From an uncultured Pseudomonadota bacterium (lineage in GTDB: Bacteria > Babelota > Babeliae > Babelales > RVW-14), in the NCBI GenBank assembly GCA_964527595.1, contig CAZGPI010000001.1:145145-209144 (forward strand): a DNA stretch of 64,000 nucleotides, written 5' to 3'. Both the position numbers and the translations under genes were made by a program. Below, in pieces: positions 11,074-13,915 of the stretch. The stretch's first letter is position 1; every line of letters starts with the position of its first letter. The notes under the pieces are model-generated. The model saw only the letters and a list, made by a program, of their open reading frames with translations. It was not told where the DNA came from and made no database searches.

Positions 11074-12048
11074 TTAGTAGTGACGCCACGGATAATGCTG
11101 TACAGCCGGGCGGGGCTCTTCAACTCCATATGCGCTGTTGTTACAATCTGGATACGCGTGTCTGCCTCCAGGGCAATTTGCTTGGCAAAACCAGCAAAAT
11201 TCATGGCGACATGATCTGCAGGTCATGTGTCTGCAGCCTCCATTTCTTTCAATCCCTTCATTGCATTGAGGGCATTGTACTCCTGCTTGTAGATATGCAG
11301 CCGTAGCTGGGTCAATATCCCTTGTATCTAAAGACCCAGGAGATAAATGGGCCAGAAGGGCAATGTCGTAAGCTCTGAGCATTGTTGCATTATCGTGTGT
11401 TATTTTTTGTATGTCTTCTCTCGTAAGTACTGCTTGCTCAAAACCAGGGACTATAATTCTATCGAACAAATTACGATCATTCTGATATTTTGTAAAAACG
11501 TGTTGCAATAAACAATCTCTACAACAAGAATATCCGCAATTTAGATGTGTTAAATTTTCATCATTAAAGCAAACGTTGCACGCACCGATATGTTCTTGTT
11601 CATTATCTACATATGTAGGATCTGGATGAATATCAGCGACATTTTGTATGTTGGCTGGGGCAGGAGCAGCAGCTATTCTTGCTTTAATAATGGCAACTTC
11701 GATTTGTTTTTTTATTATGGGAGCACAAATAACGCCAACAACAACAATGCCTGCACCAATGCAAATATTTCGAAGGGTATGGCTTTTGGCTGGGGGTGTG
11801 GCAGCTTCTTTTACTTCATTAGCTTCATCACCAGGTAATAAAGCTTCCTCTGAATTAGGCTGAGACGCTTTGGCCTTATCGGCAAGATCCTGTAATTTAT
11901 TTTTTTGTTTGGCAAGAGCTTGCGCTATTGCAGAACTCTTTTCGTGATATGCATTGTATTTTTCCGGTAAAGCGCAAAAAATTGATGATGTGCTGGTAAA
12001 TAGATAAACAACCAACGCAAATAAAATAGTATTTTTATGTAATTGCAC
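11074..12048 (-). CDS. Membrane-anchored RBR-like E3 ligase-like protein A (degenerate RING1, intact Rcat/RING2)
   Basis: Signal-like N-terminus, coiled coil, and TM '[18 protein letters not shown]'. RING1-like '[23 protein letters not shown]' and Rcat '[30 protein letters not shown]'. Confidence 0.7.
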   Translation of the reverse strand: [324 protein letters not shown]

Positions 12049-12193
12049 GAATGATTCCTTTATGAATATAAAATTCGATGTTAAAACCAGAGTTATTAAA
12101 GCTTATTGAATTTTTATGGAAAAATCAAATCATTCGACTTGACAGCGCAATGCCGAACTTGTTTTTCTATTTGAATTTGACTGGTAGCGGTTT

Positions 12194-13198
12194 TTAGCGA
12201 TGATAGGTTGGAATATGTGCCTCTGCCCCATATATGCCGGCGCCACAGTTTGGATAGGCGTGTGTATGGCCATTATAATCAAGCAAGCAATTATAGCAAA
12301 ATTGATGTCCGCACCGGCAAGTCATATGGTTACATCCTTCATTTCGTTCAACGCCTTGGTGGCAGCGAGGGCAAGGTCTTACGTGTTGATAAATGTATTC
12401 AGCGTCAGCTGCATCCATGTGTTCCATATTTACCGGCACAGGATTTAGGCGTTGCTGATGTGCTCTTTCATAGGCGCCAAGCATTATGGTGTCGTTACTC
12501 GTTATGTTTGCAATGTCATTTCTGTTGATGGTTTCCGTGCATCCGCCTATTGGTTGATCTGGGCAATTTATCATATCAAACCTCTCAAGTGCATTATTGC
12601 GAGCATGTTGGAGGTTTCGTTGCAAGCATTCTCTACAATAAGAGTGTCCGCAATGTAGACGGATTAAGGGACGTTCTTCAAGGCAAATGCCGCATTCGCT
12701 ACGAGGGCCTAATTCTGCTTCTGCATGAATTTGCTCGGGTGCTTGATTGGGCCATGCAAATTGGTTTTGTTGTGGCGCGGCTGGTACCTCGAGTCTTACG
12801 CGTCTCCAGTATTCATCTTCGCGTTGTTGCCGCCTGCGTTCTGCCTCGCGCTCGTCTTCAATTATCGCCCAAACAAGCGCAGCTGCAATAAGGCTAGCAC
12901 CGATAAGAACATTTCTAAGGGTGTGGCTTTTGGCTGGGGGTGTGGCAGTCGCGTCTTTTTCATTGGCATCGTTATTAGGTAATAGTTCCTGCTCTGCATT
13001 AGGCTGTGATTCTTTAGCCTTATCGGCAAGGTCCTGTAATTTGTTTTTTTGTTTAGCAAGAGCTTGCGCTATTGCAGAACTCTTTTCTTGGTGTGAATCG
13101 TGTTTATCTGGCAGAGCGCAAAAAATAGATGATGTACTGGTAAATAGAAAAAGAATCAGCGTAAATAAAATAGTATTTTTATGTAATTGTAATTGCAT
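12194..13198 (-). CDS. Membrane-anchored RBR-like E3 ligase-like protein B (complete RING1 + Rcat, no IBR)
   Basis: RING1 '[24 protein letters not shown]...[11 protein letters not shown]' and Rcat '[29 protein letters not shown]'. The N-terminal ~100 aa are nearly identical to protein A. Confidence 0.75.
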   Translation of the reverse strand: [334 protein letters not shown]

Positions 13199-13441
13199 GA
13201 ACGATTCCTTTAGTGAATATAAAACTCGATGGTAAAAAACAGAGAATTTAAAGACTACTGAATTTTTATGGAAAAATCAAATAAGCTTTGGGCAGTGTTG
13301 CGCTGCAATTATTTTTTCCATTTGAATTAAGCAATATGCTTACAGTAACACTTTCGATATGCTTCGCCGCGCTACGCGCAGCTTCGCACTTAGGACGAGC
13401 GGGTTTTGTGTATCGAACCATGCGGGCTACATAAAAAACCG

Positions 13442-13915
13442 TTAAAGGGCTTCGGCATAATCTAAGGCTGTATAATCAGCCCAATCACGAATTTCGGCGT
13501 CGGCGCCAGCAGCAAGAAGTATTTGAACCATTGCCGCCTTCTTTTTACTTATTGATTTTACAACAAGAATTAAGGCCGTTTGGCCAAAAATGTTTTTGGC
13601 ATTAACATTAACGCCTGGCATCCCAAGAATTATTTGAACCAAGCTTAAGTCATTGTCTTCTGCCGCTAAGAGTAAGGCGGTATCGCCATCGTTATTTGGT
13701 GTATTGATGTTAATCTGGGGAATTTGAACTAAAGCTTTGGCCAGGTCTTTAGCTCCGCCAAGCTTGGCGATGGTAATAAGTTGGTCGGGTATATCCAAGT
13801 CGGCTAACTCTAAGTCATCGTTCGATGAGTCAATATCCATATCATTAACCATCGCTGACGTATTAAATACGAATATAAAAATACAAATAAATGTAATGCT
13901 TACACACTTAATCAT
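13442..13915 (-). CDS. Secreted ankyrin-repeat protein
   Basis: Signal peptide 'MIKCVSITFICIFIFVFNTSAM'. ANK repeats 'DGDTALLLAAEDNDLSLVQIIL' and 'FGQTALILVVKS...MVQILLAAGADAEIRD'. The ATG at 13915 is preceded by a G6 tract on the coding strand. Confidence 0.8.
   Translation of the reverse strand: MIKCVSITFICIFIFVFNTSAMVNDMDIDSSNDDLELADLDIPDQLITIAKLGGAKDLAKALVQIPQININTPNNDGDTALLLAAEDNDLSLVQIILGMPGVNVNAKNIFGQTALILVVKSISKKKAAMVQILLAAGADAEIRDWADYTALDYAEAL

Follow-up and report, generated by a model that had tools for sequence, protein, structure and literature searches.

The 64,000-nucleotide stretch of contig CAZGPI010000001.1 between positions 145,145 and 209,144 (hereafter, the window, in whose own numbering all coordinates are given) carries three neighboring genes on its reverse strand: two tandem genes whose products, denoted A and B, are related to the RING-between-RING (RBR) ubiquitin ligases (E3s), and a gene for a small ankyrin-repeat protein. 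Protein B consists of a signal-like N-terminus, a coiled coil, a transmembrane (TM) helix, a complete RING1 domain, a Cys-free helical linker and the RING2 domain, also known as Rcat; protein A shares the N-terminal cassette of B, followed by a RING1 without zinc site II, a Cys-free linker and an intact Rcat. Sequence comparison and structure modeling support the view that A and B are membrane-anchored, RBR-derived RING1-Rcat proteins that have no in-between-RING domain (IBR) and belong to a bacterium. Much of this had been proposed from the letters alone (the original prediction), and the three open reading frames (ORFs) and every peptide quoted there are found where they had been placed, the first ATG of the ankyrin ORF, at 13915, being the end coordinate then given.

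The signal-like N-terminus, short coiled coil and single TM helix predicted for both proteins agree with two hydrophobic segments in each (residues 10-28 and 96-114 in B, 8-26 and 94-112 in A) and with the helices modeled with AlphaFold2 (AF2). The N-termini fit a signal peptide in hydrophobicity and in n-h-c layout, with a non-canonical cleavage site. A lipoprotein signal was also considered and was rejected upon inspection of the sequence, where 'SIFC' misfits the lipobox.

The C-termini of A and B are assigned by profile searches to the IBR/Rcat families, in agreement with the RBR-type Rcat that had been recognized from the Cys/His array, and these arrays are well outside what chance would produce. 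The Pfam model IBR_1 is matched above its gathering score by both A (E 1.3e-11) and B (E 4.3e-9), and the scores of IBR_1, IBR and IBR_2 on the C-termini are all above or near the cut-offs. Because the Pfam IBR models span the IBR and RING2 domains alike, which of the two is present was checked with phmmer against the PDB. Residues 262-319 of B align with residues 330-390 of ARIH1 (E 1e-9), and residues 246-303 of A with residues 283-341 of ARIH2 (E 3.8e-10), such that C289/H291 of B and C272/H274 of A fall on the catalytic Cys and the His two residues on (the Cys of GCNHM in ARIH1 is numbered 357 by count). The helix that precedes the Rcat aligns with ARIH1/ARIH2 as well, and further Rcat matches in the PDB lists come from RNF216, CUL9, parkin and HOIP. 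Neither A nor B lacks any of the eight zinc ligands of the Rcat, and the motif GC.HM.C occurs in each of the 24 bacterial relatives tabulated.

The full C3HC4 RING1 claimed for B is equally clear. Residues 168-213 are matched above the gathering scores by several RING families of Pfam (zf-RING_2, 31.4 bits with a cut-off of 27.3; zf-RING_UBOX, 30.2 with 25.2; zf-C3HC4, 22.9 with 21), and all eight zinc ligands are in place (C169, C172, C183, H185, C188, C191, C212 and C220). The RING1-like domain of A fits the C3HC4 pattern in part: site I (C157, C160, C176, C179) is present and site II is gone, Tyr173 replacing the His and the last Cys pair missing, so that one complete and one RING1-degenerate paralog stand side by side, as had been proposed. 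The RING1-like region of A scores 32 bits with a hidden Markov model (HMM) of the RING1 domains of bacterial RBRs. Both A and B have the loop-1 Ile/Val and the loop-2 Pro, positions known from RING-E2 complexes to contact the ubiquitin-conjugating enzyme (E2).

The central IBR, or BRcat, the two-zinc domain that defines RBRs, is missing from both proteins. The Cys-free stretch noticed between RING1 and Rcat measures 55 residues in B (Cys220 to Cys276) and 53 in A, and when A and B are aligned with three IBR-containing relatives (P0005, P0008, P0009), a single clean gap lies opposite the Cys-rich IBR block of ~65 residues. In the relatives from bacteria and metagenomes, the spacing between the RING1 core and the Rcat is bimodal, with 124-147 residues and 8-12 Cys in one group vs 64-103 residues and 0-4 Cys in the other. 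The HMM envelopes agree: in the IBR-less proteins, RING1 and its trailing helix abut the pre-Rcat helix. The Ariadne autoinhibitory domain (PF19422) has no Pfam match in A or B, which end 16-22 residues past the Rcat. Given the missing IBR and the lack of an Ariadne domain, A and B are classed here as RBR-derived 'R-Rcat' proteins rather than canonical members of the RBR family.

The structure models point in the same direction. The AF2 model of B was built from an alignment of 13 sequences. Its predicted local distance difference test score (pLDDT) is ~90 across RING1 and ~80 across the Rcat, with two helices of the linker at 85-92; helices are modeled at residues 226-232, 237-251 and 263-272 of the linker region, and the N-terminal part is modeled with the hydrophobic segment, residues 36-64 as a helix and the TM within a long helix (91-137). 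The RING1-like region of A is modeled with a pLDDT of 86-95 despite the loss of site II. Both models are confident in RING1, linker and Rcat. Foldseek searches of the PDB with these models return, at E <= 1e-3, only RBR ligases (33 matches for B and 22 for A, including ARIH1, parkin, ARIH2, RNF216, HOIL-1 and HOIP), the best match of B being ARIH1 in an active E3-E3 assembly (7b5l_H). Thus, the AlphaFold modeling proposed earlier gives both A and B an overall predicted fold of the RBR type. The global predicted template modeling score (pTM) is 0.34-0.36, so the mutual orientation of the domains is uncertain and is not relied upon.

Table 1. Features of the R-Rcat locus and of the nearby secretion genes (positions in the window; all on the reverse strand).
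Feature	Position	Strand	Basis
Protein A ORF (324 aa, GTG start)	11074..12048	-	Pfam IBR_1; ARIH2 match; AF2 and Foldseek
Protein B ORF (334 aa)	12194..13198	-	Pfam RING and IBR_1; ARIH1 Rcat match; AF2 with RBR-only fold matches
Ankyrin-repeat protein ORF (small, signal-like N-terminus), possible partner	13442..13930	-	Pfam Ank models; hydrophobic N-terminus
B residues 1-28, signal-peptide-like segment	13115..13198	-	Hydrophobicity; AF2 helix; translation
B residues 36-64, predicted helix/coiled coil	13007..13093	-	AF2 helix 36-64; translation
B residues 96-114, TM helix rich in small residues	12857..12913	-	Kyte-Doolittle 1.98; AF2 helix 91-137
B residues 169-220, C3HC4 RING1	12539..12694	-	Pfam matches; conserved columns; pLDDT ~90
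B residues 221-275, helical linker without Cys where an IBR would lie	12374..12538	-	No Cys; alignment gap; AF2 helices
B residues 276-318, Rcat (RING2), zinc-ligand set complete	12245..12373	-	Pfam; ARIH1 alignment; ligand table
B Cys289 codon, predicted catalytic (thioester) Cys, followed by Asn290-His291	12332..12334	-	Aligned to ARIH1 Cys357 of GCNHM
A residues 94-112, TM helix	11713..11769	-	Kyte-Doolittle 2.43; AF2 helix 88-127
A residues 157-205, RING1-like domain	11434..11580	-	pLDDT 86-95; 32 bits with bacterial-RBR RING1 HMM
A residues 259-302, Rcat, zinc-ligand set complete	11143..11274	-	Pfam; ARIH2 alignment; ligand table
A Cys272 codon, predicted catalytic Cys in GCRHM	11233..11235	-	Aligned to ARIH2 GCNHM Cys
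Shared 5' cassette, B copy (~130 bp upstream and codons 1-95)	12914..13330	-	83% DNA identity to 11770-12130
Shared 5' cassette, A copy	11770..12130	-	DNA identity to B copy
GspE-type secretion ATPase, candidate export route	33518..35233	-	NCBIfam type_II_gspE 642 bits (cut-off 630); Pfam T2SSE
Secretin (PilQ/GspD-like)	30847..32502	-	Pfam Secretin E 1.9e-36; NCBIfam PilQ/GspD below cut-off

By the relatives of its MetRS, the window is from a bacterium of the phylum Dependentiae (TM6). The locus lies among bacterial housekeeping genes (MetRS, an ABC exporter, PolA, LptF/G, TyrRS), and the named relatives of the MetRS, at 58-64% identity, belong to Candidatus Dependentiae, candidate division TM6 and Babeliales; relatives labeled only 'bacterium' and one from a metagenome-assembled genome (MAG) labeled Epsilonproteobacteria were set aside. 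Eukaryotic contamination or a chimeric assembly was considered and rejected given the uniform GC content across the window (~0.40), the housekeeping flanks and the synteny with two other contigs.

The IBR-less architecture is not confined to this locus. The first search yielded 14 relatives; P0003 and P0004 are IBR-less too, and the gene for the latter lies on a bacterial contig of 115 kb. When one genome was scanned for each prokaryotic species, Rcat-bearing genes turned up at 20 loci, in MAGs labeled Dependentiae, TM6, Babeliales, 'uncultured bacterium' or 'uncultured Pseudomonadota'. When a profile of the IBR-less module was compared with 1.84 billion cluster representatives (clusters at 50% identity), the 15,626 matches at E <= 1e-3 encompassed the RBR superfamily, and among the best 150 representatives, 67 are IBR-less (gap <= 50 residues with 0-1 Cys) and 79 contain an IBR (gap of 61-152 residues with 6-16 Cys). 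These assignments rest on spacing and Cys counts because BLAST coverage is misleading here, the Rcat aligning to the IBR of canonical RBRs. Thus, the pair of the window, put forward as a possible 'unusual effector class', belongs to a family of at least 67 IBR-less clusters and is no singular oddity. A strongly hydrophobic N-terminus (by a strict threshold) is found in 42 of the 67 IBR-less proteins vs 20 of the 82 others. The sequences have public database entries without names.

Three layouts recur. The first is that of the window (signal, coiled coil, TM helix, R-Rcat) and includes A, B, P0259, P0260 (the L003 protein), P0266 and P0278. In the second, an N-terminal domain of ~250 residues that starts with 'YAEMGLALA..IP' precedes the R-Rcat, sometimes with a duplicated RING1; in the third, the signal and R-Rcat are followed by a C-terminal TM helix or extension. 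A duplicated RING1 was noticed in the IBR-less P0263, P0271, P0272, P0273, P0275, P0283 and P0299, and in some other proteins a single IBR-Rcat is preceded by two or three copies of RING1 (L008, 657 aa). Canonical RBRs occur in many Dependentiae MAGs, and RBR-type ligases are found also in giant viruses of protists and in eukaryotes. In a neighbor-joining tree of concatenated RING1 and Rcat, the IBR-less L020 groups with the IBR-containing L014b (84% bootstrap), apart from the clade of the window, and L006 keeps its IBR yet shares the N-terminal domain ('AEMGLALAAIP') with IBR-less proteins. Together, these two observations suggest at least two independent losses of the IBR, with the deep nodes of the tree unsupported.

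Several members of the set call for comment on their origin. Locus L003 (CAZBUZ010000075.1) is labeled 'Pseudomonadota' and carries a MetRS gene, probably P0019, whose product is 76% identical to that of the window; given this kinship and the grouping of the window's MetRS with Dependentiae, the label is doubtful. The loci L005, L009, L012, L017 and L018, from 'uncultured Pseudomonadota' MAGs, may likewise be mislabeled Dependentiae. A few IBR-less proteins (P0142, P0146, P0159, P0214, P0224) are probably eukaryotic; they come from ~1 kb contigs, and the one contig looked up holds a single gene. The group of L024 (P0142), together with the other four, is Ala/Arg-rich, with a C-terminal TM helix and a degenerate second Rcat zinc site ('EFLWDAA'), and is probably from eukaryotic plankton. 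If so, the minimal layout is not strictly bacterial, which suggests that it arose outside bacteria, too. P0169 and P0387 may be gene-model artifacts. The actinobacterial MAG chromosome OZ255840.1 (L022, Lapillicoccus, 6.65 Mb) contains an RBR-like ORF with a long Pro/Arg-rich tail that looks fungal-like and may reflect contamination or a separate transfer.

The two paralogs of the window differ sharply in the history of their parts. In the ligase module, B is 49% identical to P0259, and A is 52% and 49% identical to P0260 and P0266, respectively, with 63% between the latter two and only 39% between A and B. In the N-terminal 115 residues, the relationship is reversed: A and B are 69% identical, and the three orthologous pairs that involve them (B-P0259, A-P0260, A-P0266) only 27-37%. 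The same is seen in the DNA, with 84-87% identity between A and B in the 5' cassette, ~130 bp upstream and codons 1-95, and ~50% in the ligase module; in the cassette, 79% of the identical residues are encoded by the identical codon. A promoter scan of the locus returned nothing exceeding the shuffled expectation. The combination of old, diverged modules with near-identical cassettes suggests that gene conversion homogenized the promoter/targeting cassette, and the simplest reading of these sequences is that A and B represent two old paralogous lineages in which this took place in the present genome. In the neighbor-joining tree, A joins L003 with 93% bootstrap. Gene order is conserved as well: in L025, two SBP genes, two signal peptidase I genes, MetRS, one further gene and an RBR-like gene follow each other as in the window (501-13198), and in L003, the RBR-like gene is convergent with MetRS. 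Tandem RBR paralogs occur elsewhere, in clusters of two or three genes at L008/L013 (OY969115.1, 584-606 kb), L012 and L014.

The degenerate RING1 of A, along with the fact that tandem duplicates often include a decaying copy and that eukaryotes and giant viruses carry related RBRs, raises the alternative that A and B no longer function and are what is left of an RBR gained by horizontal transfer from a eukaryote or a giant virus, its IBR deleted and its RING1 in decay. This is very improbable. Both ORFs are intact, synteny of the locus extends to three genomes, at least 67 diverged clusters have the IBR-less form, and the RING1-like region of A is modeled with high pLDDT. The A-type orthologs in two other organisms show the same loss of site II, with modules 49-63% identical and an intact Rcat. 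The three A-type proteins (A, P0260, P0266) have all lost C7 and C8, plus C3 or H4; they retain site I, the Ile/Val of loop 1 and the Pro of loop 2. The degenerate RING1 is therefore ancestral and maintained rather than decaying. The key residues are intact in A-type and B-type orthologs alike, at 49-63% identity, which speaks for maintenance over a long time.

The gene next to B does encode, as predicted, an ankyrin-repeat protein with a signal-like N-terminus: its ORF passes five Pfam ankyrin models, and its N-terminus is hydrophobic. The adjacency, however, is not conserved at the syntenic loci L003 and L025. In L003, a small ankyrin HMM found no ankyrin gene adjoining the RBR-like gene, and in L025, the sole ORF called upstream of the RBR-like gene is short and lies outside the ankyrin-repeat scan; a conserved ankyrin-ligase operon is accordingly unsupported at these loci. 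Ankyrin genes are very abundant in Dependentiae (PMC6561590), and the window has at least two more small signal-bearing ones, so that adjacency alone says little. Ankyrin repeats are fused to the R-Rcat in 7 of the 67 IBR-less representatives and in one protein with a degenerate Rcat, and the IBR-containing L016 carries them as well. These fusions give moderate indirect support to the notion that the ankyrin protein is a substrate adaptor, which is plausible but unproven. At the other end of the window, two small ORFs with identical N-termini (VTMKLKVSFLLMFSLTNFSKRRFFMNSFMKQMLAAIALLGFATSAQA...; 61265-61756 and 62646-63185, forward strand) flank the ankyrin gene at 61917-62444 and make up a further local duplication, within a stretch rich in ankyrin genes (60386-63185).

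Dependentiae live inside the cells of protists as obligate parasites. In Chromulinavorax, signal peptides were reported for 44% of the coding sequences and 78% of the ankyrin proteins, and outer-membrane vesicles were observed (PMC6561590). The secretion route reported for Dependentiae is Sec plus the type II secretion system (T2SS) only (PMC4378268, PMC4776705): the type II system is the sole secretion system detected in Babela (PMC4378268), and T2SS genes, including two gspD copies, are core to the TM6 phylum (PMC4776705). Counted crudely, a hydrophobic start is found in 31 of the window's 50 main ORFs. The earlier remark that no type III or type IV secretion system (T3SS, T4SS) is visible in the window has to be qualified, since a secretion apparatus is visible there: a GspE equivalog and a secretin are encoded 17-20 kb from A and B and may serve their export.

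The GspE and secretin genes belong to a T2SS/type IV pilus-like cluster (27695-35974, reverse strand) with several ORFs that match no family. The cluster includes a signal-bearing AAA+ ATPase (27695-29167, reverse strand) related to CDC48 and proteasomal ATPases and reminiscent of secreted AAA fusions described from Babela. In Dependentiae, many RBR-like proteins and many small proteins that are putatively secreted have a signal-like N-terminus ending in '...x-A-M' immediately before a polar stretch, such as NLLAM/APK, DVSAM/HPE, NTSAM/VND and PFAM/EQG (the slash follows the motif). Examples in the window are 16806-17306, 17437-18039, 18057-18596 (reverse), 13442-13930 (reverse) and 60386-61063 (forward), and outside it, L008, L016, P0005, P0294, P0300, P0310, P0319 and P0343; this may be a form of signal-peptide ending, or a cleavage motif, that is specific to the lineage. 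The window also encodes two tandem, unusually long signal peptidase I paralogs (411 and 440 aa; 2827-4062 and 3977-5299, forward strand), a pair shared with the syntenic L025 (5488-7989) and notable in a phylum with nearly half of the proteome signal-bearing. Other genes of the window that caught attention are a Memo-like and AMMECR1 fusion of 544 aa with a hydrophobic N-terminus (20392-22026, reverse strand) and two adjacent large TPR-repeat proteins of 737 and 792 aa (52849-55062 and 55084-57462, reverse strand), whose N-terminal regions match no family. Memo-like and AMMECR1 domains are better known from eukaryotes and archaea.

The strict conservation of the catalytic and structural Rcat residues throughout a deeply diverged family, the E2-contact positions kept in RING1, the RBR-only fold matches and the effector-like context make a host-directed, Cys-dependent E3 the best-supported interpretation, and it is on balance probable that A and B are secreted, membrane-tethered, transthiolating E3s that depend on host E2s and derive from RBRs by a clean loss of the IBR. 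Under this interpretation, the N-terminal signal would direct Sec export, and the type II system or vesicles would carry the proteins out of the bacterium. The single TM helix would then hold them in a membrane of the host, the ligase module on its cytosolic side. RING1 would bind a ubiquitin-charged host E2, and ubiquitin would move to the Rcat Cys (Cys289 in B, Cys272 in A) as a thioester, aided by the adjacent His, and then to a substrate near the anchoring membrane. The helical linker of ~55 residues would take over the spacing role of the IBR and its flanking helices, and the near-identical cassettes of A and B, with their coiled coil and TM helix, may join the two proteins in hetero-oligomers. 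More broadly, R-Rcat proteins probably work like RBRs, and the family probably serves to hijack the host ubiquitin system.

Several considerations weigh against this interpretation. In canonical RBRs, the IBR and the flanking helices help to bind donor and allosteric ubiquitin, which leaves the predicted activity of the IBR-less proteins unproven; E2 binding and thioester formation by A and B are predictions, and the domain orientation in the AF2 models is poorly determined, as the low pTM indicates. The topology puzzle raised in the original prediction is real. With plain Sec insertion, a signal followed by a stop-transfer TM helix would leave the module on the cytoplasmic side of the bacterial membrane, and no ubiquitin is known from the bacterial cytoplasm; in relatives that combine a signal with a C-terminal TM helix, the topology would be the opposite, the module lying in the periplasm. 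We know of no mechanism by which a TM protein could pass from a bacterium that has only the T2SS into the membranes of its host. Conjecturally, insertion into the host membrane after secretion would give both layouts a short luminal tail and a cytosolic ligase.

Alternatively, A and B might stay in the bacterial inner membrane, with the module in the cytoplasm, and have a role other than on host ubiquitin, be it in a bacterial ubiquitin-like or other thioester system or as a zinc-dependent membrane scaffold. This is the placement that plain Sec topology predicts, and no system that translocates TM effectors is known in the phylum (PMC4378268, PMC4776705). Such a role is nonetheless quite unlikely: no E1, E2 or ubiquitin-like gene is seen among the annotated genes of the window, the membrane layout is reversed in other family members, the family is found together with ankyrin fusions and with signal-bearing putative effectors of the kind typical of host manipulation, and the nearest relatives by sequence and by fold are all ubiquitin E3s.

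The missing IBR itself, the loss of RING1 site II in A, P0260 and P0266, and the Ariadne affinity of the Rcat point to another conceivable role. Ariadne ligases work with cullin-RING ligases, and A and B might be non-catalytic decoys that trap charged host E2s or dock on the host cullin-RING/RBR machinery, the ubiquitin relay being disabled by the loss of the IBR (and, in A, of site II as well). However, the catalytic Cys-x-His and all Rcat ligands are strictly kept among members with 32-63% identity and across many IBR-less clusters, which is hard to explain if catalysis has been lost, and a pure E2 trap has no need of an Rcat. A decoy role is therefore unlikely.

Comparison with known ligases helps to place these proteins. 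ARIH1 (HHARI) and ARIH2, of the Ariadne subfamily to which the closest known proteins belong, are the best sequence matches of the Rcat and share with A and B the order of domains, RING1 first and Rcat last, the catalytic Cys-Asn/Arg-His, the zinc ligands and the pre-Rcat helix; they are eukaryotic and contain an IBR, an Ariadne domain and UBA-like or acidic regions, instead of which the bacterial A and B have the N-terminal signal, coiled coil and TM helix, A being also devoid of RING1 site II. The canonical RING1-IBR-Rcat proteins of Dependentiae and other MAGs (P0005, P0008, P0009, L006, L010, L012) resemble A and B in their signal-like N-termini, frequent tandem paralogs and RING1/Rcat signatures but keep a block of ~60-70 residues with 6-8 extra Cys, the IBR. 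RNF144A/B and the RNF19 family have an RBR module tethered to the membrane by a single TM helix, as in A and B, but contain the IBR, and their TM helix is C-terminal to the ligase, an arrangement shared with many R-Rcat family members, whereas that of A and B precedes the module and follows the signal peptide. The RBR-type E3s of giant viruses (Fadolivirus A0A7D3UNQ8, Klosneuvirus, Hokovirus) are likewise ligases of protist parasites; the Fadolivirus protein is also very short (218 aa) but viral.

To our knowledge, the bacterial E3 effectors fall into HECT-like, NEL, RING/U-box, SidC-type and SidE-type classes. SopA/NleL (HECT-like), IpaH/SspH (NEL), NleG/LubX (RING/U-box) and SidC usurp host E2s, and the HECT-like and NEL effectors also use a catalytic Cys thioester. 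These effectors differ from A and B in fold and ancestry, A and B having a zinc-dependent RING1 and Rcat of RBR origin, and are delivered by a T3SS or T4SS, neither of which has been reported in Dependentiae. The reviews of bacterial ubiquitin effectors consulted contain no bacterial RBR, mentioning RBR only as a eukaryotic class, and the Babela and TM6 genome descriptions, which list F-box, RING and deubiquitinase proteins, include no IBR or RBR. A full-text literature search for bacterial or naturally IBR-less RBRs found nothing, although its coverage was incomplete and a prior description is possible.

Taken together, these observations permit a more far-reaching but only tentative reading, in which R-Rcat would be an autonomous minimal class of transthiolating ligases that emerged from RBRs on at least two occasions within Dependentiae and became a major effector family there, delivered as membrane-anchored proteins from a Sec/T2SS-only bacterium and inserted into host membranes by an undescribed route, with B (complete RING1) and A (one-zinc RING1) working as a hetero-oligomer through a cassette kept alike by gene conversion. 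The pairing of old, diverged catalytic modules with a near-identical targeting cassette is an unusual evolutionary pattern that points to co-localization or co-assembly. A natural RING1-Rcat protein without an IBR amounts to a ready-made experiment on the need for the IBR in the RBR relay, and the module, at only ~175 residues, should be easy to express, crystallize and engineer. A signal and a TM anchor in a bacterium with Sec and T2SS only sharpen the question of how the hundreds of signal-bearing 'eukaryote-like' proteins of Dependentiae are delivered to the host cytosol. If the proposed activity is real, R-Rcat would add an RBR-derived class to the bacterial E3 effectors, in a poorly studied phylum of protist parasites.

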